Assembly: GCA_964602575.1 (NCBI GenBank)
Contig: CAZRSI010000003.1
Coordinates: 1 to 34,370 of the forward strand
DNA: 34,370 nucleotides
Source: an uncultured Anaerolineae bacterium
Lineage (GTDB): Bacteria > Chloroflexota > Anaerolineae > VGOG01
Direction: 5' to 3'
Position numbers and translations under genes: made by a program. Shown in pieces: positions 2,782 to 29,829 of this stretch. Numbering within the stretch: the first letter of the stretch is position 1; every line of letters starts with the position of its first letter. The notes under the pieces are model-generated. The model saw nothing but the letters and a program-made list of their open reading frames with translations, did not search any database and had not been told where the DNA came from.

Positions 2782-2785
2782 AGCC

Positions 2786-12022: not shown

Positions 12023-12057
12023 TCTCCCTCCTTCGTGTTGATGTCTCTTTGTGCTCT

Positions 12058-12107: not shown

Positions 12108-12207
12108 GGGAGCGAAATACCACAAAAGGCAGCCAGCGATCCATCAACACGGTACAGGGAGACTACCTAGGGTCCAGCCCCAGAGAAACAGGTATTTTGA
12201 GGAGGCT

Positions 12208-12936: not shown

Positions 12937-13111
12937 ACAGGAGTAATGAGAGCACGGAAACTGATGCCGTCTCGCAAGAAAGAAAGACCTGCTATACGGA
13001 GCTAGGGGGAGCGACTCCCCTGGGGAGGAAGTCTATGCAATATGGTACACAAATTAGAGTCATCCCTATCAAGTTTCACCTTCAGTTCAAAACAAAAAGG
13101 AGGAGTAAGTA

Positions 13112-14371
13112 ATGAAATCCAAATATTCCACCCGTGTCTTGACCCTTATTCTGTCGGTGTTGATGGTAGCCGGCTGTGCAACAACCCCAGCCAAGCCAAC
13201 TGAAGCCCCAACAGCTACTCCAACAGAGGCCGCTCCGATCAAGGTGGGTCTGATAGCTGCCTTGGGCGACGTTAGCGGTATCAATGGACAGAATGGGGCC
13301 CTTTTGGCAGAGAAGGAAATCAATGCTGCAGGAGGGGTTTTGGGACGACCTCTAAAAGTGATCGTCGTGGACGACGAGATGACGCCTGAGAAGGGAGCCG
13401 CGGCTGTAGACAAGCTGGCCACCGTGGACAATGTGGATGCATTTGTCATCAACTCCTTCAGCGGTGTGCATATGGCCCAGATACCCGCACTGAAGAAATA
13501 TGGGAAAGTGACCATCGTGACCGGTGCTGCTTCACATCTCTGTGAAGAGGCCATCGGGGAGGATGCTGATTGGTATTTCCATCTGCATTCCTGGGACTAT
13601 ATGCAAGGTGAAGGCCAGAAGGCCGGCTGGCAGGCGTTTGCGGAGAAATACCCGGATATAATGTTTAAAAGCGTGTTCATGGCATACGAGGAAGGCGCGT
13701 TCGGGACCGCATCGTACCAATTCAGCCAGAAGCTCTTTGAAGACATAGCCACCTTGTCCGGGGAATCCTTCAAGAGTGCAGCCATGGGCGGCGGAGACTA
13801 TAGCGCTGTCCTAGAGCATGCAAAGGCGGAAAACCCAGATTGCTTCACTTGGGTTGGGTACGCTGCAGATGCCTTGCCTATTCTAGAGCAAGCCAAAGCA
13901 ATCAACTTTGCCCCCAAGTTCTTCGTAGGTGCTCCCCCGGGCTGGCCACCGGACTTTGGTGAGTCACCGTTGGCCGAGGGGGTCATCGCCTATGAGGTAT
14001 GGGCAGATGCTCTAACCGAAGTGAGTGATATCAGCAAGAGCTTCTATGATGGCTATGTTGAGATGTTTGGCTCCGGCCCAGATAACTACCTGGCGCCTCT
14101 GGTGTACAGTGCTATCCATATCTTGGTTGAAGGGATGGAACGTGCTGGCACCATCGAGACTGAAGCACTGATTGCGGCTTTGGAGCAAACGGAATATAAG
14201 GCCCCAACCATGGAGGTTATCACCTTTTCACCCTCGAGGATCATTTCACATCAGGCCCCCTTGACACCCATGCTTACTCAGTACCAGGGTGGAAAGTTGG
14301 AAGTCATTTACCCGTGGGATAGGGCCACTTCCGAATTGATCTATCCATTCCCTGCCTGGGAAGGTCGCTGA
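13112..14371 (+). CDS. LIV-type (branched-chain amino acid family) ABC transporter substrate-binding lipoprotein
   Basis: 419 aa with the RBS AAAAGGAGG upstream. It has a signal peptide with the lipobox LMVAGC. IKVGLIAALGDVSGINGQNGALLAEKEINAAGGVLGRPLKVIVVDD is typical of the periplasmic-binding-protein type 1 (LivJ/K-like) family. Confidence 0.85.
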   Translation: MKSKYSTRVLTLILSVLMVAGCATTPAKPTEAPTATPTEAAPIKVGLIAALGDVSGINGQNGALLAEKEINAAGGVLGRPLKVIVVDDEMTPEKGAAAVDKLATVDNVDAFVINSFSGVHMAQIPALKKYGKVTIVTGAASHLCEEAIGEDADWYFHLHSWDYMQGEGQKAGWQAFAEKYPDIMFKSVFMAYEEGAFGTASYQFSQKLFEDIATLSGESFKSAAMGGGDYSAVLEHAKAENPDCFTWVGYAADALPILEQAKAINFAPKFFVGAPPGWPPDFGESPLAEGVIAYEVWADALTEVSDISKSFYDGYVEMFGSGPDNYLAPLVYSAIHILVEGMERAGTIETEALIAALEQTEYKAPTMEVITFSPSRIISHQAPLTPMLTQYQGGKLEVIYPWDRATSELIYPFPAWEGR

Positions 14372-14405
14372 GCGTACAAGTCATAGTTTCGCGATGAAAC
14401 CATCG

Positions 14406-14445
14406 GGCACCAAGCCCGAGTATAAATTTACTTGGGCTTGGTGCC
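14406..14445 (+). promoter_or_regulatory. Stem-loop directly after the binding-protein gene (attenuator or mRNA stabiliser)
   Basis: GGCACCAAGCCCGAG (14406-14420) pairs with CTTGGGCTTGGTGCC (14431-14445). That gives 15 bp with one G-U and a 10-nt AT-rich loop. Only TTT follows. Confidence 0.55.
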
Positions 14446-14459
14446 TTTGAAGGTGGAAT

Positions 14460-15395
14460 ATGGAATTGCCAGGCGTACTTAAGCAGAGAAGGAACCAATA
14501 TGCACTCGCTTGTCTGTTCCTTGTGGTCCTTTTGATTCTTTGGAAACCCAGTGTTCTTATCTATGGAGTCCAAAGGGCTGGCTTGTATGCCGCGATCGCG
14601 ATTCCCATGGCCCTCGTTCTCGGTGTAGTGGGCATTCTCAATATTGCACACGGCGATTTTATGATGATCGGGGCTTACCTCGCATACTGGGGGAATGTTC
14701 TCTATGGGGTTGACCCTCTGGTTGCCATGATTCCTGTCTTTGTGGTCATGTTTGTCGTTGGGGCAGTTACTTACAAGACCACCATCAAAAAGGTATTGGA
14801 TGCTCCGGAGTTCAGCCAACTCTTGCTGACCTTTGGCTTGGCAATGATATTGGAGCAGTTGGCAAACTTGTTGTGGACTTCCCAACCTAGAAAATTGCAT
14901 GTGGATTATGCCTCTACATCAGCAACGATTGGTCCTTACAGCTTTGGCGTCTTTGAGTTTGCCAACGCGGCCATTGCCCTCCTTATTCTTATCACTCTTG
15001 TGTTGTTTTTGAGCCGCACCAGAACGGGGCAGGCTGCTCTGGCTGTGGGGCAGAATCCTCGGGGAGCCAGGCTTGTGGGCATAGACGTGGAGCGATCATA
15101 CCTCCTTCTCTTCAGTCTGTCCATTGCCATAGTATCTGCTATCGGTGGTCTCTTTCTCGTTCGCCATTCCATCTTTCCCCTGGTTGGAGGTTCTTACACG
15201 ATGAGATCCTTTGCTCTCATCGCTATGGCAGGCATCGGAAACCTCCCGGGAATACTGTATTGCAGCTTGGTGCTGGGCGTAGCGGAGAGCCTTATCATAA
15301 GCTTTAAAGGATACGGCGGGTGGGCAGATATTGTCTTCTTTGCCTTTATCCTGCTGGTAATCCTCATTAGATCCTATCGGGAGAGACTAACATAA
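14460..15395 (+). CDS. livH: Branched-chain amino acid-type ABC transporter permease (LivH family)
   Basis: 311 aa and polytopic, with the family motif GILNIAHGDFMMIGAY. The RBS AAGGTGG lies upstream. An internal GTG at 14523 is an alternative start. Confidence 0.85.
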   Translation: MELPGVLKQRRNQYALACLFLVVLLILWKPSVLIYGVQRAGLYAAIAIPMALVLGVVGILNIAHGDFMMIGAYLAYWGNVLYGVDPLVAMIPVFVVMFVVGAVTYKTTIKKVLDAPEFSQLLLTFGLAMILEQLANLLWTSQPRKLHVDYASTSATIGPYSFGVFEFANAAIALLILITLVLFLSRTRTGQAALAVGQNPRGARLVGIDVERSYLLLFSLSIAIVSAIGGLFLVRHSIFPLVGGSYTMRSFALIAMAGIGNLPGILYCSLVLGVAESLIISFKGYGGWADIVFFAFILLVILIRSYRERLT

Positions 15396-15478
15396 AAACC
15401 TGGAAGCCTATCCTCGCTGTTGTTGTCCTTATCCTGTGCATAACTTTTCCCTTTTATGCTGGGGCATATCCACAACGT

Positions 15479-16321
15479 GTGGCAACGACCATCATTATGT
15501 ATGCAACACTTGCCTTGAGCTGGGACATGATGTTTAGATCCGGACAGCCCGGCTTGAGTGTCGCAGGTTTCTTTGGCCTTGGGGGCTATGCCGCAGCTTT
15601 GTCCTTTCTTTATTGGGGGGTAAATCCGCTGGTATCTATTGCTCTTGGATGTCTGTTTTCCCTTCTAGTGGCGTTCATTTTAGGCTTGGTGATTCTGAGA
15701 ATCAGAGGATTGTATTTCTCAATTGCAACGATGTCATTGTCCGAGATATTCAGGGTGATCGTGATGAATTGGCACCGCTTCACAGGTGGACCTTCGGGGA
15801 AAGCACTTCCCTCGGCGGTCTTTAATGGAGATTCTGCCAAGATATTCTGGTTGTTTTTGGTGCTCACACTCCTTACGGTCATCGTTTCAGAAATCTTTGA
15901 AAGAAGCAGGATTCACTTTGCCCTCACGTCCATTCGGAACAATGAGATTGTTGCCAAATCAAGCGGAATAGACGTTTTCAAGTATCTGGTCGTTGTATTT
16001 GCGCTGACCTCAGCTCTTCAAGGAATGATCGGCGGTGCTTACGCTCACAGCTATGCGTTTATCTCGCCAGAGGGTAGTTTTAATTTCAATTTTGTTCTTT
16101 TGCCCGTGACCATGGCTCTCTTTGGAGGAATACACAGCACGCTAGGTCCGATAGTGGGAGCGGTGATACTAGGAGTGGTTGGAGAATATCTGAAATTGCA
16201 ATTGCCCTATGGGCACTTACTGGTCTACGGTGTAATCATAGTGATTGTTATTCTGTTCTTACCTAAGGGAATTGTCGGAACAGCCAAGGAACGATTGAAA
16301 CACAAATGGGCTACCATATAG
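15479..16321 (+). CDS. livM: Branched-chain amino acid-type ABC transporter permease (LivM family); the true start is probably upstream
   Basis: 280 aa from GTG 15479, with MYATLALSWDMMFRSGQPGLSVAGFFGLGGY typical of LivM. The in-frame upstream stretch 15392-15478 encodes a credible first transmembrane helix but has no canonical start codon (see findings). Confidence 0.85.
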   Translation: MATTIIMYATLALSWDMMFRSGQPGLSVAGFFGLGGYAAALSFLYWGVNPLVSIALGCLFSLLVAFILGLVILRIRGLYFSIATMSLSEIFRVIVMNWHRFTGGPSGKALPSAVFNGDSAKIFWLFLVLTLLTVIVSEIFERSRIHFALTSIRNNEIVAKSSGIDVFKYLVVVFALTSALQGMIGGAYAHSYAFISPEGSFNFNFVLLPVTMALFGGIHSTLGPIVGAVILGVVGEYLKLQLPYGHLLVYGVIIVIVILFLPKGIVGTAKERLKHKWATI

Positions 16322-16344
16322 GCTCTGCTCTCGGAGTGTGAGTG

Positions 16345-17061
16345 ATGCAAATTTTGGAGATTGAAAATCTGAGCAAATGTTTTGGGGGCTTGACGGCGCT
16401 TAACCAGGTGAATGCCAGATTTGAGGAAAGAGAGATCGTGGGGATCATTGGCCCCAACGGAGCCGGGAAGACAACTTTCATAAATGTCATTTCAGGGGTA
16501 TACCCTCCCAACAGTGGCAGGATCATTTTTGATGGGAGGGACATAACGAAATTACCTGCTCATACCAGATGCAGGCTCGGGATCGGGAGGACTTTTCAAG
16601 TCATTCACCCATTGCAAGATCTCAACTTGCTGCAAAACATCATGGTGGGTTCTCTTTTTGGGCAAGGAAATGGACTGAGAGAAGCTCGGGTAAAGGCACA
16701 AGAAATATGTGAATTTCTGGGACTTGACCAACTCGAAAGAGATACATCGCAACTAGACATCTTGGAAATTAAAAAGATGGAGATGGCCCGTGCTTTGGCA
16801 ACTCACCCCAAGATATTATTCCTAGATGAGATTATGGCGGGTCTGAGCGCAGACGAAACCAAAGAGGTGATTGAAACAATCCGAACCATCCGTGACCAAG
16901 GCATAACCATCTGCGTTGTAGAGCATGTGATGAGTGTAATTGAGGAATTGACTGAGAGGGTCATAGCCCTGGATGGTGGAAGAATCATAGCCCAGGGACA
17001 ATATAAAGAGGTAGCTAACAATCCTAGAGTAATCAGTGCTTACCTGGGAGAAGAAGAGTAA
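16345..17061 (+). CDS. livG: ABC transporter ATP-binding protein (LivG family) with a degenerate signature motif
   Basis: Walker A GPNGAGKTT, Walker B ILFLDE and H-loop VEHV are present. LDILE (16753-16767) stands where LSxGQ is expected. The start ATG 16345 is one codon after GTG 16342. Confidence 0.9.
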   Translation: MQILEIENLSKCFGGLTALNQVNARFEEREIVGIIGPNGAGKTTFINVISGVYPPNSGRIIFDGRDITKLPAHTRCRLGIGRTFQVIHPLQDLNLLQNIMVGSLFGQGNGLREARVKAQEICEFLGLDQLERDTSQLDILEIKKMEMARALATHPKILFLDEIMAGLSADETKEVIETIRTIRDQGITICVVEHVMSVIEELTERVIALDGGRIIAQGQYKEVANNPRVISAYLGEEE

Positions 17062-17763
17062 ATGCTGATCGTAAACAAGATCAACTGTTACTATGGCAAG
17101 TTGCATGTCATCCGAGATGCATCGCTGGAGGTAGGAAACGAGGCAGTGGGCTTATTTGGGCCTAATGGAGCAGGCAAGACCACCTTAATACATACTATCA
17201 TTGGCTTGTTAAAACCTGCGACTGGCAAGATTACTTTTGAGGGCAAATCCTTGCTTCACATGGAAACACATGAAATCATTCGAGAAGGGATTGCAATAGT
17301 TCCACAAGAGAGAGAACTATTTCCATTCATGTCTGTGCGAGGCAACTTGGAAGCAGGCGCCGCTTATATCCCAAGTGCCAAAAATAGAATGGGCGAGAGA
17401 TTGGATTACGTTTTTGATCTTTATCCCTTACTAAAAGAACGATCAAAGCAGCTTGCCGGGACATTAAGCGGAGGAGAACAACGGATGTTGGCGATTGCCC
17501 GCGCTCTTATGGCCTGCCCCAAGCTCCTCATTTTGGATGAACCGTCTTTGGGCTTGCAGCCTTCTTTGGTTTCGGAACTCTTTTGCAAGCTAAAGGAAAT
17601 CAAAAAAGAGGTCTCTATCCTGATAGCAGAACAGAATGTACGCCAAACTTTGAGAGTCATCGATAGAGGATATGTAATCGAGAATGGCAGGATTGTATGG
17701 AGTGATGATGCCGAAGGCCTGGCACGGAGCGAGAAAGTAAAAAAGTCGTATTTGGGTTTGTGA
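17062..17763 (+). CDS. livF: ABC transporter ATP-binding protein (LivF family)
   Basis: Walker A GPNGAGKTT, canonical signature LSGGEQ and Walker B LLILDE are present. It starts directly after the livG stop. Confidence 0.9.
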   Translation: MLIVNKINCYYGKLHVIRDASLEVGNEAVGLFGPNGAGKTTLIHTIIGLLKPATGKITFEGKSLLHMETHEIIREGIAIVPQERELFPFMSVRGNLEAGAAYIPSAKNRMGERLDYVFDLYPLLKERSKQLAGTLSGGEQRMLAIARALMACPKLLILDEPSLGLQPSLVSELFCKLKEIKKEVSILIAEQNVRQTLRVIDRGYVIENGRIVWSDDAEGLARSEKVKKSYLGL

Positions 17764-17771
17764 TCAAAGCG

Positions 17772-19091
17772 ATGAGCGACCTTGAAAATCTGAGAATCAA
17801 ACTCACCCCAGAGGAATGGGATATTCTACAGGGCAAGCAGGGGCCAACCATGCAGAGGGTCATGGAAACCGTGGTGCTCTATGGCGAAGCCTTGGGCGCG
17901 GAAAGGCTAGTGGACATCGAGGGGGCTGGACACTTCGTCATAGCCTGGGCCACCCCCGGAATCGCACCGTCCCTGGAGATGCTCGACGAATTGGTGGCGG
18001 CCGGCCTCAAGGCCAAACATTCTTTTACCTTGGACCCAAAAGCCCCCTTGGATTTTGAGAACCTGTGCTTGCGTCCGGAGCAGGAACGGCTCTTGGAACA
18101 GATGTATCGGGATCAGGCTCGCTACGATGAGAGAATGTTGCAACTGGGGCTCCGCGATGCAGATGCCTACACCTGCAATCCCTACTTGCCGGAAGTAGGC
18201 AACATACCCCAAAGAGGCACTATCCTGGCTTGGTCAGAGTCCGCCTGTGCGATTTTCGCCAATTCGGTGCTGGGCGCGAGAACCAATCGCAATGGGGCCA
18301 TCATGGACCTCCTCTCCAACATCGTGGGCAAGACACCCTTGGTGGGCCTCCTGACCGAGGAGGGGCGGCGGGCTACCTGGCTGGTGGAGGTGCGAACTAC
18401 GAAACTGCCACACCCGCAGTTGCTGGGAGCCGCCATCGGCAAGAAGGTGCTGGAGGGCGTGCCATTCATCGTAGGGCTGGATCGCTTTCTGGGTACTGAA
18501 CTGAGCGAGGAAACCCGCGATTACCTCCAGGACATGGGTGCAGCCTGCGCTACCTACGGGGCCGTCGGACTCTACCACGTGGAGAACATAACTCCTGAAG
18601 CGGTTGAGCAGGGCACCGACCTGCTGATTCCGGATCATGCGACCTACGTGATAGATGACCAGGAACTCCAGGGCCTGTTGGCCTCTTATCCGGTGCTGTG
18701 GCCTAGCGGGAAGACGAAACCTGAGAAGTGCTACATCGGGTGCCCTCATCTGAGCCTGCGACAGTTGTACTGGTGGACCGACAGGATCCACAATGCGCTG
18801 GAGGCCAGGGGCCAGAGCCAACTCGCCGTTGAGACTGTTCTGTTTGCCGCTCCCCAGGTATTGCAGAAGTTTAAAGCCGACACGGAGACCCACAAGCGAC
18901 TGCAGTGTGCCGGCGTCAAGCTCAGCCCAGCCTGCGCTGAGACCCTGTTCGAGGGTGGCGTGAGTGCGGAGGATGCGGTGGTCACCAACTCCAACAAGCT
19001 GCGGGCCTACACTACAGCCAGGTTCTTCCCCGATGAGGAACTGGTGGATATCCTGGTCAGTGGAGAGATAACAGACCCTAAGGGTTTCTGA
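17772..19091 (+). CDS. Aconitase X large (catalytic) subunit, DUF521 family
   Basis: The N-terminus LTPEEWDILQGKQGPTMQRVMETVVLYGEALGAERLVDIEGAGHF matches the DUF521/AcnX catalytic-domain pattern as I recall it. The ORF opens at GTG 17760, overlapping the livF stop, and ATG 17772 is the preferred start. About 440 aa is the expected size. Confidence 0.8.
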   Translation: MSDLENLRIKLTPEEWDILQGKQGPTMQRVMETVVLYGEALGAERLVDIEGAGHFVIAWATPGIAPSLEMLDELVAAGLKAKHSFTLDPKAPLDFENLCLRPEQERLLEQMYRDQARYDERMLQLGLRDADAYTCNPYLPEVGNIPQRGTILAWSESACAIFANSVLGARTNRNGAIMDLLSNIVGKTPLVGLLTEEGRRATWLVEVRTTKLPHPQLLGAAIGKKVLEGVPFIVGLDRFLGTELSEETRDYLQDMGAACATYGAVGLYHVENITPEAVEQGTDLLIPDHATYVIDDQELQGLLASYPVLWPSGKTKPEKCYIGCPHLSLRQLYWWTDRIHNALEARGQSQLAVETVLFAAPQVLQKFKADTETHKRLQCAGVKLSPACAETLFEGGVSAEDAVVTNSNKLRAYTTARFFPDEELVDILVSGEITDPKGF

Positions 19092-19103
19092 AACCCTTAG
19101 GGT
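19075..19103. repeat. 29-nt perfect palindrome straddling the AcnX-L stop codon (copy 1)
   Basis: ACCCTAAGGGTTTC-t-GAAACCCTTAGGGT has 14-bp arms. The TGA stop (19089-19091) sits at the centre. A related copy lies at 22999-23031. Confidence 0.8.
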
Positions 19104-19123
19104 TTCCGAGGAGGAGGAATGAT

Positions 19124-20419
19124 ATGAGCAAATCATCGGAGTTGATCGAACGCGACCACACCACCGTAGCCGCTACCATCTACAGATACACCAATATCGC
19201 CTTCCAGCGGGGCGAAGGGGTGTACCTCTACGATTGCGAGGGCCGCAGGTATCTGGACTTTGTGGCGGGCATCGCCACCATGAACGTGGGACACTGTCAC
19301 CCGGCCGTGGTGGAGGCCATCTGCGACCAGGCCCGTACCCTCATCCACGGCGCCTGCCACGTGGGTTACATGGAGCCTTACGTGGACCTGCTGGAGGCAC
19401 TCAAGGCCGTGGCCCCCGGCGACCTCAAGAACGGCAAAGGCATCCTGATGAACAGCGGGTCAGAGGCGGTGGAGACGGGCATCAAACTGGCCCGCTATGT
19501 CACCAACCGCCCCATGATCCTGGCCTTTACCGATAGCTTCCACGGGCGGGCTATGGGAGCCTTGGCCCTCACCGCCAGCAACACACTCTACCGCCGACGC
19601 CTGGCCGGCCTTCTGACGGGTGTCTATCACACTCCCTACCCCTACTGTTACCGCTGCCCCCTGAAGCACGAATCGCCAGAGACGTGCGGGCTGGCCTGCC
19701 TCAACCTGGTGGAAAAGGCGCTCCAGACAGTGGTCCCGCCCGAAGACCTGGCGGGCATTGTAGTCGAGCCTATCGCCGGCGAGGGGGGCTACATCGTCCC
19801 GCCCGACGGCTTCCTCCAGGGCCTGCGGGAGATCTGCGACCGTCACGGGGCGCTGCTCATTGCCGATGAGGTGCAAACGGGCTTGGGCCGTACTGGGAAG
19901 ATGTTCGCCGTGGAGCATTGGGGTGTGGTGCCCGATGTCTTATGCCTGGCCAAAGCACTGGGAGGCGGTTTGCCCCTGGGGGCGATGCTGGCCAGAGCGG
20001 ACTTGATAGACGCTTGGCCCCCGGCGGCCCAGGGCACCACCTTTGGCGGCAACCCCATTGCCTGTCGGGCTGGCCTGGCCAGCTTGCGGATCATTCAAGA
20101 GGAGAATCTGATGGCCCACGCCGTGGAGGTGGGCAATTACATTCAGAATCGCTTTCGCGAAGCTCAGAGGGAACTGCCCATCATCGGAAACGTGCGAGGC
20201 AAGGGGCTGATGGTGGCGGTGGAATTGATCAACGCCGACGGCAGCCCGGCCAGCGAGATCATCAAGGCAGTGATCAAAGAGATCGGGGCCCAAGGCGTGG
20301 TCATGACCAAATGCGGCGCCAGCTCTCTGCGCATCGCCCCGCCACTCATCATCACCCAGGAACAGGCAGAAGAGGGGGTGGATATCATCATCGAAACATT
20401 GCGCCGTCATCAGTGGTAG
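19124..20419 (+). CDS. Class-III PLP-dependent aminotransferase (omega-amino acid, GABA or acetylornithine type)
   Basis: 431 aa with the RBS GAGGAGGAGG upstream. It has DEVQTGLGRTGKMFA and the LAKALGGGLPLGA Schiff-base lysine region. Confidence 0.9.
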   Translation: MSKSSELIERDHTTVAATIYRYTNIAFQRGEGVYLYDCEGRRYLDFVAGIATMNVGHCHPAVVEAICDQARTLIHGACHVGYMEPYVDLLEALKAVAPGDLKNGKGILMNSGSEAVETGIKLARYVTNRPMILAFTDSFHGRAMGALALTASNTLYRRRLAGLLTGVYHTPYPYCYRCPLKHESPETCGLACLNLVEKALQTVVPPEDLAGIVVEPIAGEGGYIVPPDGFLQGLREICDRHGALLIADEVQTGLGRTGKMFAVEHWGVVPDVLCLAKALGGGLPLGAMLARADLIDAWPPAAQGTTFGGNPIACRAGLASLRIIQEENLMAHAVEVGNYIQNRFREAQRELPIIGNVRGKGLMVAVELINADGSPASEIIKAVIKEIGAQGVVMTKCGASSLRIAPPLIITQEQAEEGVDIIIETLRRHQW

Positions 20420-20450
20420 CGGCATTGTTGCGCCACAGCTCACCTGCTCT

Positions 20451-20494
20451 CGCTGGACCCTAGTCCAGCGGCCTCAGCGGACTAGGATCTGCTG
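20451..20494. repeat. Twin-hairpin element, copy 2 (diverged)
   Basis: The first hairpin is CGCTGGAC-ccta-GTCCAGCG (20451-20470). The second is CAGCGGA-ctagg-TCTGCTG (20475-20494, one G-U). Flanking GCTCTC (20445-20450) pairs with GAGAGC (20494-20499). The core GGACCyTAGTCC / GGACTAGG is as in copies 1 and 3. Confidence 0.65.
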
Positions 20495-20547
20495 AGAGCA
20501 TAAGATGAGCATACCAAAACCCACCAAATAAAAAGGAGGTTCTCGAA

Positions 20548-22056
20548 ATGATAAAACTTACAGAAAGAGCAGCCAGTATACAACCTATTAAGTCGAAACT
20601 AAAGATCAGCGTGCTCGACGATGAGGACATACAGAAGATAAACCAGGCCGCCCTGACTATCTTGGAAGAAGTCGGGGTAGTGATGCCGTCGGAGAAGGCG
20701 CTGAGGATCTTCGCCGATGCCGGGGCCAATGTGGATTTCGACAAGAAGCTGGTCAAGATTCCAAGTCACCTGGTAGTTGATTCCTTGAAGAAAGCCCCCA
20801 GGCGTTACACTCTATGTGGAAGGAGGCCTGAGCTCGATGCCCATATAGGAAGCAATGAGGGCACCTACTTCTATTGCAGTGGCGAAGCGCCCAAGATCGT
20901 GGACCTGGAAACCGGTGAGAGGCGACACTCGATCAAGAGCGACGTGGGAAACATGGCGAAGGTAGCCGACTACCTTCCCATCGTATCACTGGTTTGGCCA
21001 ACGGTCAGCGCAAACGATAAAGGAGTGACTGCGCCGATTCACGGGGTGGAGGCCTGCTTCAACAATACGGAAAAGCATGTCCAGACGGAATCCGTCATGG
21101 ACAAGATCTCAGCTAAGTATACTATTGAGATGGCCTCCGTAATCGCTGGAGGCCGGGACAAGCTGAGGGAGAGGCCGATCTTCTCGCTCCTGTTATGCGC
21201 TATCGCACCCCTTGCTCAGGATAGAGGAGGGATAGAAGCGGCTTTAACCTTCGCCGAAGCCGGTCTGCCGGTAGGGGTAATGTCCATGCCCACCATGGGC
21301 CTGACAGCCCCGCCATATCAGGCTGCTGCCCTGGCTGTGGGGTTGGCGGAAACGTTGAGCGGTTGTACCTTGATCCAGATTGCCTACCCAGGGACTCCCA
21401 ACTACATATCCATCATCCCGGCAATTATAGATCCACGAACGGGAAGCTACTTCATGGGGTCAGCCTTTGCCCAGATCGCCAGTGCTGCCGCCGTTCAGCT
21501 TGCCCATTCCAACGGACTACCTATTACGGCCTGCAAATCCTTCGGTGGAAGCCAGTATAAATTGAATAATTGGCAAGTAGGAATAGAGAATCTTTATGGC
21601 CATATCCTGGCAGTCATGGCCGGGGCGGACATGTCCTTCGGGCCCAGCGGCATGATAGAGGCCGTGAGTTTGCTGGATATGAGAAGGATCCTATTTGACC
21701 GCGAGATCCTTCAGGTCATAGACATCGTCACCGATGGAATCGAGGTAAACAGCGAGACTCTGGCTTTTGACATGGTGCGCGAGGTAGGTCCTCGAGGTAT
21801 GTTCTTAGCTCAACGGCGCACGGCAAAAGAGCTTCGCAAACTCTGGCCCTCCTCTATCCTGCTTGAACCATCCCAGGTTCCAGAGGAAAGATACAGGGAT
21901 CCAGTGGAGGTTGCCCACGAGGTTATTGACTGGATCCTGAAGAATCATAAGCCAGAACCATTGCCCGAAGACGTGAGGGAGGAACTCAGGAGGATAGTGG
22001 CTGCTGCTGATCGGGATAAGGAGCTGAAGCGAGAAGTTGAAGGAGCCCACAGGTGA
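20548..22056 (+). CDS. MttB-superfamily methyltransferase, non-pyrrolysine type (quaternary amine:corrinoid methyltransferase candidate)
   Basis: 502 aa with the RBS AAAAGGAGG upstream. The N-terminus LDDEDIQKINQAALTILEEVGVVMPSEKALRIFADAGANVD and the overall length are typical of the trimethylamine methyltransferase (MttB) family. The reading frame is uninterrupted, with no in-frame TAG. Confidence 0.8.
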   Translation: MIKLTERAASIQPIKSKLKISVLDDEDIQKINQAALTILEEVGVVMPSEKALRIFADAGANVDFDKKLVKIPSHLVVDSLKKAPRRYTLCGRRPELDAHIGSNEGTYFYCSGEAPKIVDLETGERRHSIKSDVGNMAKVADYLPIVSLVWPTVSANDKGVTAPIHGVEACFNNTEKHVQTESVMDKISAKYTIEMASVIAGGRDKLRERPIFSLLLCAIAPLAQDRGGIEAALTFAEAGLPVGVMSMPTMGLTAPPYQAAALAVGLAETLSGCTLIQIAYPGTPNYISIIPAIIDPRTGSYFMGSAFAQIASAAAVQLAHSNGLPITACKSFGGSQYKLNNWQVGIENLYGHILAVMAGADMSFGPSGMIEAVSLLDMRRILFDREILQVIDIVTDGIEVNSETLAFDMVREVGPRGMFLAQRRTAKELRKLWPSSILLEPSQVPEERYRDPVEVAHEVIDWILKNHKPEPLPEDVREELRRIVAAADRDKELKREVEGAHR

Positions 22057-23477
22057 GAATCGAGCACGTGGCCGTCATCGGCGCCGGCACGATGGGACAC
22101 GGCATCGCCCAAGTATTCGCTCTGGGCGGCTTGCAGGTGGCCCTGACCGACAGCGATGCGGAGGTTCTGGGAAAAGCGATTCAGCGCATCCAGGCGAATC
22201 TCGAGACTTGTGTTGAGTATGGCCTCATCGCTGAAGAACAGGCTGCGGCCGTACCAGCCCGTATCGCTTTGACCTCCAATCTGGCCGATGCGGTTGCTCA
22301 GGCTGACTTCATCGTGGAAGCCGTCTTTGAGAACCTCGCCGTCAAGCGCGAGGTGCTTCGCCAATTGGAGGAGTGCTGTCCGGCCCACGCCATCATCGCC
22401 AGCACCACCTCCAGCTTTCGCGCCCGTGACATGGCCGTCGCGCTGAGCCGCCCGGAGCGGTTCCTGGTAACCCACTTTTGGAATCCGCCATACGTCATTC
22501 CGGTCGTGGAGGTGATGCCTGGAGATCGCACCTCCGCCGAGGCTGTCCAGACCACCATGACGCTTCTAGAAGATGTGGGCAAGTATCCAGCGCTGGTGAG
22601 GAAGGACGTGGCCGGTTTCGTCGGTAATAGGCTGCAGCACGCTTTGCGCCGAGAGGCGATTGCCATCGTGGCTGAGGGTATCGCCAGCCCTGAGGATGTG
22701 GACCTCATCGCCAGGCTGAGTTTCGGCCTGCGGTTGCCCGTGCTGGGCCCACTGGAGACCGTTGATCTGGGTGGCCTGGACCTCACGCTGGCCATTCAGA
22801 CCTACCTGCTCCCGGAGCTGGACCGTTCCACCGAGCCCAAGCCGTTGATCCGCGATAAGGTGGCACGCGGCGAACTGGGTGCCAAAGCCGGCCGAGGATT
22901 CTACGACTGGCCCCCAGGCCGGGCTGCGGAGGTCATTCGGCGACGGGACGAGGCTCTTCTGGAGATGGTTCAGTGGTTGAGATCCCGCGGTTTCCTGCAG
23001 ACCCGAAGGGTTTCGAAAACCCTTCGGGTCTCCTTCCAGGGAAGAGCGATCCTTCCAGGCAACCTGGAAGGTGAGGCCCTGGTAACCCACATGGGGTTTA
23101 ACGCTTACGCCAGCTTCTCTACCAGCATCCACGCTCCGGTGGAGTCGGCCCAATGCGCCGACAGCAGCAATCCGGAACTCTACGGGAAGAATCTGACCGA
23201 CAAGATCCTTTGCCTTCCCCAAACCACCGGCTCCACCTCAGCCGGAGCGGTGTGGCAAAGGGTGGCCCAAATGGGGATCGCGCCCAAAGCGGTGTTGTTT
23301 TCCCAACGGATAGACTCCTTGGCTGCTGGAGGATTGATCGTAGCCGATGTGTGGGCTGGCAAGCGAATCGTCACCGTAGACCAATTAGGTGACGAGTTCC
23401 TGGAAACCGTCCGGGACGGCGACCGGATCGTGATACGAGAGGATGGCACAGTCATTGTCGAGAAGGGAGAAGCATGA
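22053..23477 (+). CDS. Fusion protein: N-terminal 3-hydroxyacyl-CoA-dehydrogenase-family NAD domain plus C-terminal aconitase X small (swivel) subunit, DUF126
   Basis: The GTG start overlaps the mttB stop (GTGA). The N-terminal part has the Rossmann motif VIGAGTMGHGIA and HFWNPPYVIPVVEV. The C-terminal roughly 148 aa (GRAILPGNLEGEALV...KILCLPQTTGSTSAGAVW...GDRIVIREDGTVIV) match the DUF126 pattern. The linker TRRVSKTLRVS is encoded by the palindrome at 22999-23031. Confidence 0.8.
   Translation: MRIEHVAVIGAGTMGHGIAQVFALGGLQVALTDSDAEVLGKAIQRIQANLETCVEYGLIAEEQAAAVPARIALTSNLADAVAQADFIVEAVFENLAVKREVLRQLEECCPAHAIIASTTSSFRARDMAVALSRPERFLVTHFWNPPYVIPVVEVMPGDRTSAEAVQTTMTLLEDVGKYPALVRKDVAGFVGNRLQHALRREAIAIVAEGIASPEDVDLIARLSFGLRLPVLGPLETVDLGGLDLTLAIQTYLLPELDRSTEPKPLIRDKVARGELGAKAGRGFYDWPPGRAAEVIRRRDEALLEMVQWLRSRGFLQTRRVSKTLRVSFQGRAILPGNLEGEALVTHMGFNAYASFSTSIHAPVESAQCADSSNPELYGKNLTDKILCLPQTTGSTSAGAVWQRVAQMGIAPKAVLFSQRIDSLAAGGLIVADVWAGKRIVTVDQLGDEFLETVRDGDRIVIREDGTVIVEKGEA
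22999..23031. repeat. 33-nt palindrome (copy 2) lying in frame inside the fusion ORF
   Basis: AGACCCGAAGGGTTT-cga-AAACCCTTCGGGTCT has 15-bp arms. It differs from copy 1 by paired changes in both arms: CTAAG/CTTAG versus CGAAG/CTTCG. Confidence 0.8.
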
Positions 23478-24664
23478 ATATCATTGCACCAGAAGAAGCA
23501 GGTTTTTCATCAGAACGGCTGAAGCGGATTGATGCGGCAATGCAGCGCTACGTTGATCAGAAAAAGGTGGCTGGCATTGTAACGCTGGTAGCGCGTCGTG
23601 GCAAGGTGGTTCATTATGAGAAATTCGGCTACCAGGACCTGGCCACCAGTCAACCGATGGAATTGGATACCATCTTCCGCATCTACTCCATGACCAAGCC
23701 CATTACCAGCGTGGCCTTCATGATGCTGTTTGAACAGGGCCTGGTTCGCCTGACCGATCCTGTAACCAAATTCATACCCGAGTTTGGGCAGGTTAAGGTC
23801 CTCGTTGGCGAGGACGGGCTAACCGATCTCGAACGCGAGATCACCATTCACGATCTGCTCCGGCACACCGCCGGGCTGAGCTACGGCGGCTATAAGGAAA
23901 CCCACGACCCAATTGACAAGCTGTACGATCAGGTGAACCTTTGGGAGCCAGGCATCACCAGCCAGGAGATGGTGCGACGCCTTACCGAGCTGCCTCTGGC
24001 CTTCCAGCCAGGGCAGGGATGGCGGTACAGTGTGGCTACCGATGTGGTCGGCTACCTGGTGGAGTTGATCTCCGGTATGTCTCTGGCCGAATTCTTCGCG
24101 GAAAGGATCCTGCAACCTCTTGGCATGGAGGATACGGCTTTCTCCGTGTCGCCCGACAAGAGGCATCGCTTCGCCACGCTGTATGGGAAGACCGAGCAGA
24201 GCGACTTGGAGGTAATTGACACAGCTACAGGTGGCGACTATTTCAACGTAAGCCTTTATTCAGGCGGGCATGGTCTGGTGTCTACTGCAGCCGATTATCT
24301 GCGCTTTGCTCAATTGATCCTCAACAAAGGCGAGTTGGACGGCGTGCGCTTGCTGGGACCGAAGACCGTGGAACTGATGACCACCAATCACCTCCCGCCC
24401 GACTTATTGCCGATAGCAATGAGCGGGGAACAAATGCCCGGGATAGGCTTCGGACTGGGTTTCAGCGTGATGATGGATGTGGCCCTCTCGGGGTGGATGG
24501 GCTCTGTGGGCCTCCATGCCTGGGGCGGCTGGGCCAGCACACATTTCTGGGTGGACCCACAGGAGCAGCTCATCGGTATCCTCATGCTACAGTACATACC
24601 TAGCGATGCCTACCCGATCAAAAACGATTTCAGGACGCTTGTCTACCAGGCGCTTATCGAGTGA
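23474..24664 (+). CDS. Beta-lactamase-fold serine hydrolase (class C / EstB / D-aminopeptidase-like family)
   Basis: 396 aa with an ATGA overlap onto the upstream stop. It has the S-x-x-K motif YSMTKPITS and WRYSVATD (Tyr motif region). Confidence 0.85.
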   Translation: MNIIAPEEAGFSSERLKRIDAAMQRYVDQKKVAGIVTLVARRGKVVHYEKFGYQDLATSQPMELDTIFRIYSMTKPITSVAFMMLFEQGLVRLTDPVTKFIPEFGQVKVLVGEDGLTDLEREITIHDLLRHTAGLSYGGYKETHDPIDKLYDQVNLWEPGITSQEMVRRLTELPLAFQPGQGWRYSVATDVVGYLVELISGMSLAEFFAERILQPLGMEDTAFSVSPDKRHRFATLYGKTEQSDLEVIDTATGGDYFNVSLYSGGHGLVSTAADYLRFAQLILNKGELDGVRLLGPKTVELMTTNHLPPDLLPIAMSGEQMPGIGFGLGFSVMMDVALSGWMGSVGLHAWGGWASTHFWVDPQEQLIGILMLQYIPSDAYPIKNDFRTLVYQALIE

Positions 24665-24883
24665 GCGCTACTCACCTGTTCCCGCCGGATTCCTTCAACT
24701 ATGCTCTCGCGAAGGGAGGAGCTCGGTCAGGAGACCTTCGCTCATCACTTATAGTGAGTGAAATAGAACTATCCCCGCTGTGGGGCTGACGGAAAGTGGA
24801 GTTATGGAAAGGAGGGATGTCTATGACATGAGAATGTCGGGTTATGGCGGTAGTATTGAGAAGACAACTAAGGAGGTTAAGAA

Positions 24884-26731
24884 ATGACTAGGAAGACTCT
24901 GACCAATCTGGTTCTGGCGCTAGCCATGTTGCTGACCATGTTGGGTGCGGCCAGCGCTGCCCCGCCGGCCCAGGAGGAGATGACCTACACGGTCAAGCTG
25001 GGGGACAACCTGTGGACCCTGGCGGAGAAGTACCTGGGCAGCGGTCCGGCCTACTGGGCCATCGTCGGTGCTACCAATACCAGACATGGGACAGACCCCA
25101 CCTTCGCCCGCATCGAGAACCCCGACCTGATCCATCCTGGCTGGAAGCTCCTCATCCCCAGTGTCGAGGAAGCAGCGAGATATGCTGCTCTCGCCAAGCC
25201 TGTCCCGACCGGCCTCGTCACCATGCGCGTCGGCACCACCTACATCCTGGACACCATCAACGTCAACGTGTCCTGGACGAGCTGGTCCATCTGGCGGCTC
25301 ATCTACGATGCACTGATCGAGACGAGCGCTCTGGGCGTCTATAGGCCCGGCCTCGCAGAGAGCTGGAGCGTGTCCGACGATGGCCTGACCTGGACGTTTA
25401 AGATCCGGAAGGGAGTGACCTTCCACGACGGTACGCCCTGCACCGCCAAGGACGTCGCCTGGAGCCTCAACTGGATGAAAACGGTAGGGAACGACAGCCT
25501 GTCCTATCTGTGGGATGATGAAACCGAGGAAATCGTTGCCCTGGACGACACCACCTTGCAGATCAAGACCCCCTTCCCAGTGGGCAACATGGAGTACCGC
25601 ATGTTCTGGGCCTTCATTGTCCCGAAGAGTGTATGGGGCGGCATTGACAACTACGACGATATGGCAGCCTACACGGAGCTCGATGCTGCCACAGGCACGG
25701 GCCCCTTCAAGGTGGTGGACTATGCCCCAGATGAGTACCTGATCCTGGAGGCCAATGAGAACTACTGGGGGGGCAAGCCTGCCATTGACAGGCTCATCTT
25801 CCAACAGTACGCCACTGAGGATGCCATGGTGCAGGCGCTGCTGGCTGGCGAGATTGACGCCATCGAGGGCGTTCCAGCCACAGCGGTCCAAACCTTGCAG
25901 GAGGCGGATAACATCCACGTGGAGATCCTGCAAGGGCACGCGGTGGATGAGTTGACCATCAACTCCCACGAGAACGGCACCCAGCCGCCCAGCCTGAACG
26001 ATCCCATTGTGCGCCTAGCCATCGAGTATGCCATTGACCGCCAGAAGATCATTGACGTGGCCTACATGGGTTTCGGCACGCCAGCCACGACCATGATCGC
26101 TCCCAGCCTGGGAGACTGGCACAACAGCGAAATCGAGGCCATCCCCTTCGACCCCGACGAGGGCAATCGCATCCTCGATGAAGCCGGCTACCTGGACACC
26201 GACGGCGATGGCATCCGCGAGTGGTCCGATGGCACCCCGATGAAGTACCGCCTGATGGGTGGAGACACTGCTACCGACGCCCGCGTCCTGGAGATCATCG
26301 CCGATGGCTTGGCCCAGATTGGCATCGGCACCGAGATCAACGCCGTGGACTTTGAAACCCAGTCCGCAAAGGCTTACGAGTACGACTTCGACTTGAACTA
26401 CTGGTGGTGGGGCATGGACATTGATCCCGACTTTGCTATGGTGATCTTCAAATGCGAGGAGCGAGAGGGCTGGGGCTGGAATCCCAACGGTTACTGCAAC
26501 CCAGAGTTCGAGGAGTTGTACAAGCAACAGGCCAGGGCCGTGGATCACGAAGAACGGCGCAAGATCATCTGGAAGATGCAGGAAATGATTTACAACGATC
26601 GCCCCTGGATCGTGCTCCTCTATCGGGTCAACATCGCGGCCTATCGCAGCGACCGCTTCACTGGCTTCAGGCCGGAAGCCAAGTATCTGCTGGGGAAGTG
26701 GTCACTGATGCATGTTGAGCCCCTGGTATAG
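24884..26731 (+). CDS. Family-5 (Dpp/Opp-type) peptide ABC substrate-binding protein with an N-terminal LysM domain
   Basis: It has a signal peptide ending in ASAAPPA, with no lipobox. The LysM-like module YTVKLGDNLWTLAEKYLG...IHPGWKLLIP spans about 24986-25159. The remaining roughly 520 aa are SBP_bac_5-like (FKIRKGVTFHDGTP, ANENYWGGKP). The RBS AAGGAGG lies upstream. Confidence 0.85.
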   Translation: MTRKTLTNLVLALAMLLTMLGAASAAPPAQEEMTYTVKLGDNLWTLAEKYLGSGPAYWAIVGATNTRHGTDPTFARIENPDLIHPGWKLLIPSVEEAARYAALAKPVPTGLVTMRVGTTYILDTINVNVSWTSWSIWRLIYDALIETSALGVYRPGLAESWSVSDDGLTWTFKIRKGVTFHDGTPCTAKDVAWSLNWMKTVGNDSLSYLWDDETEEIVALDDTTLQIKTPFPVGNMEYRMFWAFIVPKSVWGGIDNYDDMAAYTELDAATGTGPFKVVDYAPDEYLILEANENYWGGKPAIDRLIFQQYATEDAMVQALLAGEIDAIEGVPATAVQTLQEADNIHVEILQGHAVDELTINSHENGTQPPSLNDPIVRLAIEYAIDRQKIIDVAYMGFGTPATTMIAPSLGDWHNSEIEAIPFDPDEGNRILDEAGYLDTDGDGIREWSDGTPMKYRLMGGDTATDARVLEIIADGLAQIGIGTEINAVDFETQSAKAYEYDFDLNYWWWGMDIDPDFAMVIFKCEEREGWGWNPNGYCNPEFEELYKQQARAVDHEERRKIIWKMQEMIYNDRPWIVLLYRVNIAAYRSDRFTGFRPEAKYLLGKWSLMHVEPLV

Positions 26732-26748
26732 GGAGGTTAGCGTCAATA

Positions 26749-26783
26749 TCCGGTCGGCCCGGCTCGTTGCCGGGCCGACCGGA
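26749..26783 (+). promoter_or_regulatory. Stem-loop directly after the peptide-binding-protein gene
   Basis: TCCGGTCGGCCCGGC-tcgtt-GCCGGGCCGACCGGA is a 15-bp perfect GC-rich stem. No T-tract follows. Confidence 0.6.
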
Positions 26784-26800
26784 ATCCTCACGAGGCGGGT

Positions 26801-27814
26801 ATGCAGCGCAGCGACTATCTGATTCGTAAGGCCTTTTGGGCACTCATCACCCTGGTGGTGGTGATTGTCTTCAACTTCTTTCTCTTCCGCATCTTGCCCG
26901 GCGACCCAGTCAGGGCGCTCATCCAAAGCGCCAGAATGGACCGCGAGGCGCAGGAGAGGATCAGGACCCAGTTTGGGCTGGATAAGCCCATCTGGCTAGA
27001 CGTGGAGCGACTGCGGCAAGGCGACATAAGAGGAACCCTGGACACACAGTTCACTGCCTATGTGAGTAATTTACTGCGAGGAAACCTGGGGGTCTCCTTC
27101 ACCAAGAAGATGCCCGTGAGCAAGCTGCTGGCGGAGCGCGTGTGGCGAACGGTGGTACTGTTGGCCCTCGGCGAGGTGATATCCATCGTGTTGGGCATCA
27201 TCCTGGGCATCGTGGCCTCGTGGCGGCGCGGCTCCAAGCTCGATACTGGCATAATGATGTGGGGGCTGTTCACCTGGTCTATTCCCACCTTCTTCTTCGG
27301 CATCATCCTGGTGATATTGGCCCGTGGGCACCTCCCGACCGGTATGATGGTCACCCCAGGCCTGAAGCCGGAGGACGGCCTGACCTATTGGCTAGATGTG
27401 GGGAAACATCTCATTTTGCCCACCATCACCTTGGGTATTGGGTACGTCAGCATGTACATGATGGTTATGCGCAGCAGCGTGGTGGAGGTGCTGAGCGAAG
27501 ACTACATCCTGACTGCCAAGGCCAAGGGGCTGAGTACCTTCCGGATTCTGCGCGACCATGCGCTCAAGAACGCCATGCTGCCCATGATAACCAACATCAT
27601 GCTCACCCTGGGCTATACCGTCGGCGGGGCTATCCAGGTGGAGACGGTCTTCTCCTGGCCGGGGATCGGGCGGCTGATCTACGACGCGGTGGGCAAGCAG
27701 GATTTTCCAGTGCTGCAGGGCGCGTTCCTGTTGATTGCCGCCAGTGTCATTGGAGCCAACTTCCTCGCCGACCTGTTATACTCGGTGCTGGACCCGCGGG
27801 TGAAGGCGGAATAG
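26801..27814 (+). CDS. Peptide/nickel-type ABC transporter permease (DppB/OppB family)
   Basis: 337 aa with the N-terminus YLIRKAFWALITLVVVIVFNFFLFRILPGDP and the EAA-loop region DYILTAKAKGLS typical of the family. Confidence 0.9.
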   Translation: MQRSDYLIRKAFWALITLVVVIVFNFFLFRILPGDPVRALIQSARMDREAQERIRTQFGLDKPIWLDVERLRQGDIRGTLDTQFTAYVSNLLRGNLGVSFTKKMPVSKLLAERVWRTVVLLALGEVISIVLGIILGIVASWRRGSKLDTGIMMWGLFTWSIPTFFFGIILVILARGHLPTGMMVTPGLKPEDGLTYWLDVGKHLILPTITLGIGYVSMYMMVMRSSVVEVLSEDYILTAKAKGLSTFRILRDHALKNAMLPMITNIMLTLGYTVGGAIQVETVFSWPGIGRLIYDAVGKQDFPVLQGAFLLIAASVIGANFLADLLYSVLDPRVKAE

Positions 27815-27827
27815 GAGTGCTGGGGAG

Positions 27828-29698: not shown

Positions 29699-29702
29699 TA
29701 AC

Positions 29703-29804: not shown

Positions 29805-29829
29805 CTGGGTAAACACAGAGGTTAATTGA

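Follow-up and report, generated by a model that had tools for sequence, protein, structure and literature searches.

Organization of the Locus

The 34,370-nt stretch of DNA considered here (the window), from an uncultured marine-sediment Anaerolineae bacterium, encodes an aconitase X (AcnX) dehydratase whose large subunit (AcnX-L) and small, swivel-domain subunit (AcnX-S) are specified ∼3.9 kb apart, the latter joined in one 474-aa open reading frame (ORF) to a dehydrogenase of the 3-hydroxyacyl-CoA dehydrogenase (HADH) family. An earlier note made from the sequence alone had pointed to this split, to the fusion, and to an aminotransferase and an MttB-type methyltransferase standing between the two halves; the order is borne out by Pfam, and the domain calls for all five genes hold (PF04412, PF00202, PF06253, PF02737/PF00725/PF01989, and PF00144). 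The architecture had also been thought new, and nothing on it was found in the literature searched, nor any description of AcnX (DUF521) combined with a dehydrogenase fusion, MttB, or beta-keto-acid cleavage enzyme (BKACE). The genes belong to an uninterrupted run on the plus strand, from 13.1 to 30.9 kb, that leads from a LIV-type importer through AcnX-L, the aminotransferase, MttB, the HADH–swivel ORF and an esterase to an Opp/Dpp-type importer. The features are as follows.

17772–19091, plus strand: AcnX large subunit, PF04412 (1.4e-79; ORF from 17760/17772)
19124–20419, plus strand: class-III (omega-type) aminotransferase, PF00202 (2e-125)
20548–22056, plus strand: non-pyrrolysine MttB-superfamily methyltransferase, PF06253 (3.3e-72)
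22053–23477, plus strand: 474-aa fusion ORF, PF02737 (7e-61), PF00725 (3e-21), and PF01989 (1.1e-10)
22053–22997, plus strand: HADH-family NAD-dependent dehydrogenase domain, aa 1–315 of the fusion (PF02737 and PF00725 at aa 5–286)
22998–23030, plus strand: fusion linker QTRRVSKTLRV (11 residues), encoded by copy 2 of a REP-like palindrome
23031–23477, plus strand: AcnX small (swivel) domain, aa 327–474 of the fusion (PF01989 at aa 373–433)
23474–24664, plus strand: family-VIII (beta-lactamase-fold) carboxylesterase, PF00144
24884–30852, plus strand: Opp/Dpp-type ABC importer (SBP_bac_5, two permeases, two ATPases; Pfam)
13112–17763, plus strand: LIV-type ABC importer operon, preceding AcnX-L
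31985–32620, minus strand: corrinoid (B12-binding) protein, PF02310 and PF02607
436–12936, plus strand: acyl-CoA gene block (Pfam and NCBIfam)

Start and stop codons had been read as overlapping at three places along this run. Two of the overlaps, each of 4 nt, are present in the sequence: GTGA at 22053, which the MttB and HADH reading frames share, and ATGA at 23474. The third, in which AcnX-L would overlap the livF stop, is doubtful and needs the upstream GTG at 17760; because homologue N-termini begin MxDLENLxIxLT, the ATG at 17772, 8 nt past the livF stop, is the better start. Promoter and terminator predictions over 12000–31500 were no more numerous than in shuffled sequence.

The Dehydrogenase–Swivel Fusion and Its Origin

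When 5.8 billion protein clusters were searched, only five (P0001–P0005) among the best 120 matches combined an HADH with a swivel domain, the remaining 115 being stand-alone HADH proteins of ∼307–347 aa that are 70–88% identical. The five are distinct sequences that share 85–100% identity; they derive from no fewer than four separate Anaerolineae assemblies in ENA and NCBI, and the fused genes lie on separate contigs amid the same neighbors. A search with the S domain against 1.84 billion cluster representatives gave 427 matches; the other multidomain forms checked among them joined L to S, and none was an HADH-S fusion. The fusion is thus far found in a single shallow clade.

Unfused relatives have the S gene immediately after HADH, with a 47-nt gap in L001 and a 4-nt overlap in L003 (related loci are designated by L numbers). 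A DNA alignment with L001, the closest unfused relative, places CAG in two fused lineages where L001 has its TAG stop, and 20–26 nt of spacer, which hold the S start region, are missing in frame from both of these lineages. At the protein level the fused sequences differ by in-frame indels in the linker, the consensus of which is QT(R/L)(R/K)VS(K/E)T(L/F)RV. The 474-aa ORF is a real fusion of genes that were already neighbors, and an evolutionarily recent one. The DNA comparison traces it to the change of the TAG stop to CAG and the in-frame loss of the 20–26 nt that hold the S start region, with the palindrome of the former spacer now read through as the 11-residue linker. Pyrrolysine read-through of the TAG of unfused relatives was considered as another route to a fused product and rejected, as in L001 the frame past the TAG misses the S ORF.

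The linker DNA coincides with one of two copies in the window of a perfect palindrome resembling repetitive extragenic palindromic (REP) elements, AGACCC(T/G)AAGGGTTT-loop-AAACCCTT(A/C)GGGTCT, which is found in related contigs as well.

19075–19103: copy 1, 14-nt arms, 100% complementary, predicted fold energy -21.9 kcal/mol
22999–23031: copy 2, 15-nt arms, 100% complementary, translated as the fusion linker
L005 254–282 and 4178–4206, L032 2376–2404, L008 18244–18273: copies in related contigs

Copy 1 holds the TGA stop of AcnX-L in its loop and also encodes the final residues of that subunit. The motif count is 5 against 0.21 expected by chance, and the stem is kept in four fused lineages, with compensatory substitutions in L005, L032, and L033. 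Given its place in the linker DNA and these compensatory stem changes, a REP-like intergenic hairpin has come to serve as a peptide linker. The fusion offers a clear example of the birth of a multidomain enzyme, by a stop-codon change at the edge of a REP-like palindrome that is now translated as linker.

Gene Order in Related Loci

An alignment of AcnX-L was scanned against one genome per species, giving 21 loci onto which the window proteins were then mapped; these span Anaerolineae/Chloroflexota, Thermoflexia, Desulfobacterota, Thermoleophilia, and Actinomycetes. The L and S genes are adjacent in 14 of the 21 (in Chloroflexota, Desulfobacterota, and Actinomycetota); they are so in L030 too, where they overlap and an MttB–HADH pair lies on the opposite strand at the cluster's far end. 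The order L–aminotransferase–(corrinoid)–MttB–HADH–S is restricted to relatives of the window (L001/L009, L002, and L008, with the partial L005 compatible), and HADH and S are adjacent or overlap by 4 nt in L001, L003, and L008. A corrinoid–MttB–HADH module is found inverted in L028, between L–aminotransferase and S–esterase, and an aldo-keto reductase with an Fe-S domain separates L from S in L006. The esterase gene follows S in L001, L006, L018, L028, and L033.

Across three phyla most relatives keep L and S side by side, and the split in the window is derived; MttB–HADH, found in both orientations and either within or beyond the L–S pair, is a mobile module. The split is secondary, an aminotransferase gene and this module, which in some relatives includes a corrinoid-protein gene, having come to separate an ancestrally adjacent pair; the idea of an enzyme interrupted by design gives way to that of a rearrangement.

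AcnX is found repeatedly in the genomic company of dehydrogenases and of corrinoid methyl-transfer genes. Distant MttB homologues, at 23–33% identity, stand beside L–S in L021, L022, and L025, and identities this low indicate independent recruitment. The fusion, the adjacency of the genes, and the presence of other oxidoreductases between or around L and S suggest a functional link between AcnX and HADH, and the joining of a dehydratase subunit to a dehydrogenase suggests two enzymes acting in succession.

Two loci from Desulfobacterota metagenome-assembled genomes, L015 (10001–13673) and L016 (8048–11735), have an HADH-family gene and a BKACE gene (PF05853) directly flanking L–S, with an ADP-forming acyl-CoA synthetase nearby. 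An HADH or short-chain dehydrogenase/reductase (SDR) together with BKACE is a signature of routes in which a free 3-hydroxy acid is oxidized and the resulting 3-oxo acid is cleaved with acetyl-CoA, as in carnitine, lysine-fermentation, and deoxyribonate catabolism. In L018, the stretch 7044–8934, located a few genes upstream of L–S–esterase, encodes a DUF169 protein and a member of the URO-D family; that family includes methylcobamide methyltransferases.

The Aconitase X Subunits

PF04412 and PF01989 both match above their gathering scores. The structure closest to AcnX-L is that of Thermococcus kodakarensis (Tk) AcnX-L (7cnr_A, 8.8e-39), the type-I cis-3-hydroxyproline dehydratase reaching only 2e-24, and the S domain aligns to AF0055 (2hi6, 4e-10) and TK1248 (7cnr_B). 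The landmark residues defined structurally by Watanabe et al. (PMC8184944) were located in an alignment of 19 L sequences from the loci. The [4Fe-4S]/[3Fe-4S] cluster ligands Cys135, Cys324, and Cys388 (in TCNPY, GCPH, and ACAE) correspond to Tk Cys110, Cys283, and Cys342 and are invariant in the aligned sequences; Glu156-Ser157 (Tk Glu129/Ser130), Lys409, and Tyr413 (Tk Lys361/Tyr365) are also kept. In the S domain, GSTS aligns with the GSTV of AF0055 and TK1248 and carries the catalytic Ser, the general base, followed by Thr. These catalytic residues are conserved in the aligned L and S sequences of the loci, the exceptions being Tyr to Phe in L016 and GTTS in L021. At the positions that distinguish the characterized enzymes, numbered for the type-I (At) and archaeal (Tk) proteins, the following was found.

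At Asp203 / Tk Ala47: Phe, Leu, or Met in the subclass; Phe55 in the window
At Ile206 / Tk Ser50: mostly Ala or Pro (also Thr, Ser, and Cys); Ala58 in the window
Tk Asn53: Thr, Ile, and others; Thr61 in the window
Tk Asn79 / At Asn233: invariant Asp; Asp88 in the window
At Cys510: Glu or Met; in the window Cys388-X-Glu390 replaces Cys508-X-Cys510

The phosphate landmarks of mevalonate-5-phosphate dehydratase, Asn53, Asn79, and Ser50 of its L subunit, are thus represented by Thr61, Asp88, and Ala58. At Thr72 is matched by Ser (in GSTS), while Trp35 falls outside the alignment, and the score with the NCBIfam equivalog for LhpI is 141 bits, the cut-off being 700. His54 and Asp88 do not vary in any row of the alignment that covers them, the His preceding the pocket; an acidic residue at the archaeal phosphate-binding position would be compatible with a cationic substituent on the substrate. 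Heterodimeric type-II enzymes have L and S as separate adjacent genes, an arrangement absent from the window and present in most orthologous loci. The AcnX of the window thus has a full catalytic set of residues; because the landmark residues of neither known activity are found, it belongs to an uncharacterized type-II subclass and, judged by those residues, is neither a cis-3-hydroxyproline nor a phosphomevalonate dehydratase. Type II includes four subclasses, IIc–IIf, to which neither landmark residues nor a function have been assigned (PMC8184944); the window enzyme answers to that description.

The nearest relative of known activity, the T. kodakarensis (R)-mevalonate-5-phosphate dehydratase of type IIb (7CNR/7CNS; PMC8184944), shares with the window enzyme the ancestral two-subunit form, the three Cys of [4Fe-4S] type, the carboxylate- and C3-OH-binding Glu-Ser, Lys, and Tyr, and the Ser-Thr of the swivel domain. 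It differs at Asn53 (Thr/Ile in the new sequences), Asn79 (invariant Asp), and Ala47 (Phe/Leu/Met), and the window enzyme is bacterial, stands in a catabolic context rather than one of isoprenoid biosynthesis, and has its S subunit fused to a dehydrogenase and apart from L. The type-I cis-3-hydroxyproline dehydratases have in common with it the superfamily fold, a general-base mechanism, and a catabolic context. Fusion of subunits is a known theme among them, type I being an S-L fusion, whereas S is fused here to a dehydrogenase instead of to L. Type I moreover binds a [2Fe-2S] cluster through a Cys-X-Cys motif, the second Cys of which is Glu in the window, where the third Cys of type II is found instead; and the type-I residues that recognize the nitrogen and ring of the substrate (Asp203, Thr72, and Ile206) are not conserved. 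One protein of the same subclass as the window AcnX, P0246 (603 aa), is a single-chain fusion of L followed by S, the opposite domain order to that of the characterized type-I S-L enzymes.

The Dehydrogenase Domain

The HFWNPPYVIPVVEV motif of the dehydrogenase had been likened to the NPP-containing subgroup that acts on free acids, and the comparison stands: the catalytic segment, of the H-x-x-N-P-P-(H/Y)-x-I-P-x-V-E type found in the free-acid branch, scores higher against enzymes that do not use CoA than against those that do. It reaches 102 bits with FHMPC dehydrogenase (4om8) and 85–90 bits with lambda-crystallin/L-gulonate 3-dehydrogenase (3f3s 90, 3ado 85), all gap-free, as against at most 67 bits, with indels needed, for CoA-dependent Hbd/HADH enzymes. 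Taken whole, the protein matches relatives of both kinds, CoA-dependent and CoA-independent, its best structural match being FHMPC dehydrogenase. These comparisons support placing the domain, on its sequence, in a branch of the family that does not use CoA esters. The L-carnitine dehydrogenase equivalogs NF005716 and NF005471 are not reached (171 vs. 592 and 138 vs. 414 bits).

The HADH paired with MttB in L028 (5412–6419) and L030 (19412–20410) is another NPP-motif paralogue (HPYNPPHLIPIVE), so that the MttB–HADH pairing was formed with two dehydrogenase lineages.

The Methyltransferase and Accompanying Enzymes

The MttB ORF is continuous, with no in-frame amber codon, and has Gly at the pyrrolysine position. 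From its fold and the nearby corrinoid gene, it is predicted to be a member of the non-pyrrolysine quaternary-amine methyltransferase family. Its scores against the trimethylamine MttB structure (185 bits) and the MtgB structure (172 bits) are nearly equal and therefore do not tell the specificities apart. In MtgB, glycine betaine is bound by Tyr97, Arg312, His348, and Phe356 (PMC13080624); the window protein has Gly, Thr, Gly, and Val at these positions, all four being replaced. With the characterized enzymes MtgB, MtcB, MtyB, MtpB, and MthB (PMC13080624, PMC8604678) it shares PF06253, the lack of pyrrolysine, and a cognate corrinoid gene nearby, differing from MtgB in its binding residues. 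No characterized system in which an MttB gene is coupled to HADH or AcnX was found in the literature searched.

The likely methyl acceptor for MttB is the corrinoid protein encoded at 31985–32620, which scores 231 bits, below the cut-off, against the MtgC-type model. Corrinoid-protein genes stand directly beside the MttB orthologue in L008 and L028, and their products are 48–50% identical to the window protein. The aminotransferase resembles archaeal ornithine delta-aminotransferase, its best structures being Pyrococcus horikoshii 7vno (1.4e-97) and E. coli GabT, and is 84–92% identical across related loci. The esterase matches 7pp3 (1e-100) and 4ivi best and has an S-M-T-K motif of the S-x-x-K type.

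Proposed Function and Alternatives

The interpretation judged moderately probable is that a real fusion of a free-acid HADH with AcnX-S forms, with AcnX-L, an L:(HADH-S) couple within a catabolic cluster for an N-methylated hydroxy acid. AcnX-L, encoded 3.9 kb upstream, would have to join the tethered S domain in trans, L supplying the cluster ligands and the carboxylate- and hydroxyl-binding residues and S the catalytic Ser. The complex would hydrate or dehydrate a free 3-hydroxy acid at its C2–C3 bond, and the tethered domain would carry out an NAD-linked oxidation or reduction; such a couple would parallel the hydratase and dehydrogenase of β-oxidation, but independently of CoA. FadB-type enzymes likewise tether a hydration/dehydration activity to an HADH-family dehydrogenase, but FadB holds a whole crotonase hydratase acting on CoA esters in one chain, whereas here only the small subunit of an Fe-S hydratase is tethered and the substrate is probably a free acid. 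Around this couple, substrate may enter through the ABC importers and esterases may free an acid; MttB and the corrinoid protein would strip one N-methyl group, AcnX and HADH would process the hydroxy acid, the omega-aminotransferase would carry out an amine/carbonyl exchange, and the products would pass into the co-conserved acyl-CoA block. The pathway first imagined for this locus, for an imported hydroxylated betaine or amino acid, remains a plausible one.

As to the substrate class, the best single guess, and a tentative one, is a carnitine-like N-methylated β-hydroxy amino acid. Equally speculative is the fuller proposal that AcnX-L and HADH-S are a CoA-independent hydratase/dehydrogenase on a carnitine-type betaine (crotonobetaine, L-carnitine, or norcarnitine) or a related N-methylated β-hydroxy amino acid, working with an MttB of new specificity. 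The known carnitine route (L-carnitine dehydrogenase plus BKACE, CdhA/CdhC) and lambda-crystallin/L-gulonate 3-dehydrogenase resemble the window in their NPP-motif, free-acid HADH; an HADH-family gene and BKACE also flank AcnX in the Desulfobacterota loci, and genes of quaternary-amine metabolism are associated. On the other side, the window HADH lies far below the carnitine dehydrogenase cut-offs, the window holds no BKACE, and the established route is not known to include an AcnX and demethylates by other, aerobic enzymes where that of the window would be corrinoid-dependent.

Two functions of aconitase X are known, and the locus gives an orphan subclass, as well as an orphan MttB, a concrete and testable context: the tether to a free-acid dehydrogenase, the recurrent neighbors (HADH-family, BKACE, MttB with corrinoid protein, and esterase), and the invariant His54 and Asp88. 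What is new is the architecture and the uncharacterized subclass, the superfamily and the partner families being known. Were the carnitine-type proposal correct, it would signify a third AcnX function and an anaerobic breakdown of quaternary amines, without release of trimethylamine, in marine-sediment Chloroflexota. A true link to methylated amines would bear on the use by abundant sediment Anaerolineae of quaternary amines, compounds that otherwise feed methylotrophic methanogenesis.

Several observations weigh against the proposed catabolic couple. The complex of AcnX-L with the fused S domain is one that we infer, and the AlphaFold2 model of the fusion (30-sequence alignment; mean pLDDT 55.9), confident in the Rossmann domain alone, is too poor for domain geometry or a fold search. 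In a complete 4.87-Mb Anaerolineae genome (CP070818.1; L003 and L027), L and MttB–HADH–S are ∼2.7 Mb apart, and tight linkage is therefore not required; L lies there at ∼0.66 Mb, beside truncated Opp permease genes, and MttB–HADH–S at ∼3.34 Mb. The MttB-linked HADH of L028 and L030 is only ∼33% identical to that of the window, and in the HADH-family proteins beside BKACE (L015 and L016) Asn aligns at the canonical catalytic His. The window holds no BKACE gene to account for the fate of a 3-oxo acid. A single MttB would remove one methyl group and would not give a primary amine for the aminotransferase, which is hard to reconcile with the scheme, and LIV and Opp/Dpp transporters are not of the types usual for betaines. 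No core protein reaches an NCBIfam equivalog cut-off: every match for AcnX-L, the aminotransferase, MttB, HADH, the esterase, and the proline-racemase-family protein encoded downstream lies below its curated threshold, so none takes an equivalog name.

The alternative that survives best, though an unlikely one, is neutral drift of gene order, by which MttB–HADH would be an unrelated module, the fusion a tolerated accident, and the dehydrogenase part of another pathway. Many loci with adjacent L and S do lack MttB or HADH, the module varies in orientation and position, L and S are unlinked in the complete genome, and the fusion is limited to a shallow clade and to 5 of the 120 best database clusters. 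Drift does not readily account, however, for an association of AcnX with dehydrogenases that is independent in three phyla (different HADH paralogues, an aldo-keto reductase, and SDRs), for MttB-family genes that recur beside L–S at identities pointing to separate recruitment, or for a fusion frame retained over 11–15% protein divergence with its indels in frame.

Slightly less probable is that the HADH is an ordinary 3-hydroxyacyl-CoA or 3-hydroxybutyryl-CoA dehydrogenase serving the acyl-CoA block, with AcnX feeding that block via a CoA ester. Such enzymes provide its top NCBIfam names and several of its high PDB matches, and the window encodes an acyl-CoA dehydrogenase (ACAD), an electron transfer flavoprotein (ETF), an AbfD-like dehydratase, and two acyl-CoA ligases with no crotonase. 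This reading runs counter to the gap-free match of the catalytic segment to non-CoA enzymes (85–102 bits, with CoA enzymes at 67 or less and with indels) and to the whole-protein match to FHMPC dehydrogenase; both characterized AcnX enzymes use free acids, and the HADH gene travels with MttB, not with ACAD/ETF.

Doubtful to a further degree is a cis-3-hydroxyproline or proline-betaine pathway, in which MttB would demethylate the betaine and a proline-racemase-family enzyme would handle stereochemistry. A gene for such an enzyme, with a Cys/Cys pair, does lie beside the corrinoid gene at 31985–33696, and MttB-family enzymes are known to act on proline betaine. The low LhpI score (141 against 700 bits), the replacement of the At Asp203, Ile206, Thr72, and Cys510 landmarks, and the closer kinship of AcnX-L to archaeal type II than to type I argue against it; the trio of proline-racemase-family, corrinoid, and PanB genes is confined, among the loci examined, to the window contig, and the free-acid HADH would be left without a role.

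That the fused ORF is an error of assembly or sequencing, a risk the earlier note had itself named, or else a pseudogene in decay, is most improbable: every source is a metagenome assembly, but the same fusion recurs in at least four of them at 85–89% identity with conserved flanking genes, the S domain retains all catalytic motifs, and the linker indels are in multiples of three.

The Wider Cluster and Its Transporters

The proposed catabolic couple is embedded in a cluster larger than the set of genes first recognized, as the upstream acyl-CoA genes and the downstream Opp transporter co-occur with AcnX elsewhere. The upstream block (436–12936) encodes a TetR regulator, two acyl-CoA ligases, an SDR, a KASIII-like protein, ACAD, ETF beta and alpha, an AbfD-like dehydratase, an alpha/beta hydrolase, and an RdhA/QueG-like Fe-S protein. 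Its genes recur around adjacent L–S in L012, L020, and L030, nearly the whole set being present in the last two, and the AcnX locus is therefore part of a larger conserved catabolic cluster. The Opp importer is syntenic in L001, at 81–85% identity, and Opp-type genes flank AcnX in most loci.

The coupling of AcnX-L to the LIV importer, which had been taken as part of one translational unit, is not conserved in relatives: among the loci examined the LIV operon stands next to L on the window contig only, so the pairing is lineage-specific, and upstream of L the relatives have OppBC or the gene for a small Fe-S protein. With a GC content of 0.47–0.49 against ∼0.59 in its flanks, the LIV operon looks like a recent acquisition or replacement.

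Within the upstream block, the acyl-CoA ligase, SDR, and KASIII-like genes at 1237–4581 match the consecutive NCBIfam models PRK06839, PRK06841, and PRK06840, which hints at a conserved three-gene unit; the KASIII-like protein is above its cut-off (442 vs. 315 bits). The AbfD-like protein (7667–9199) is homologous to 4-hydroxybutyryl-CoA dehydratase (312 bits with 1u8v) and keeps Cys99, Cys103, and Cys299, but Tyr replaces the cluster ligand His292, and a further Cys lies four residues ahead of Cys299. The small protein at 12049–12936 (∼242 aa from its likely true start) matches no Pfam family, has two Cys-rich ferredoxin-like motifs, and weakly resembles the reductive dehalogenase/QueG family (TIGR02486, 44 bits); its gene is among the most constant neighbors of AcnX (L001, L008, L012, L020, L022, L025, and L030).

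Downstream, a convergent operon on the minus strand (31069–33696) encodes the proline-racemase-family protein, the corrinoid protein, and PanB. The first of these was considered as a trans-3-hydroxy-L-proline (T3LHyp) dehydratase and rejected in that role, since its Cys/Cys pair, in place of Cys/Thr, marks a racemase or epimerase rather than a dehydratase. Between the convergent oppF and panB genes, at 30983–31013, lies a perfect GC-rich hairpin with 14-bp arms that is probably a bidirectional terminator.

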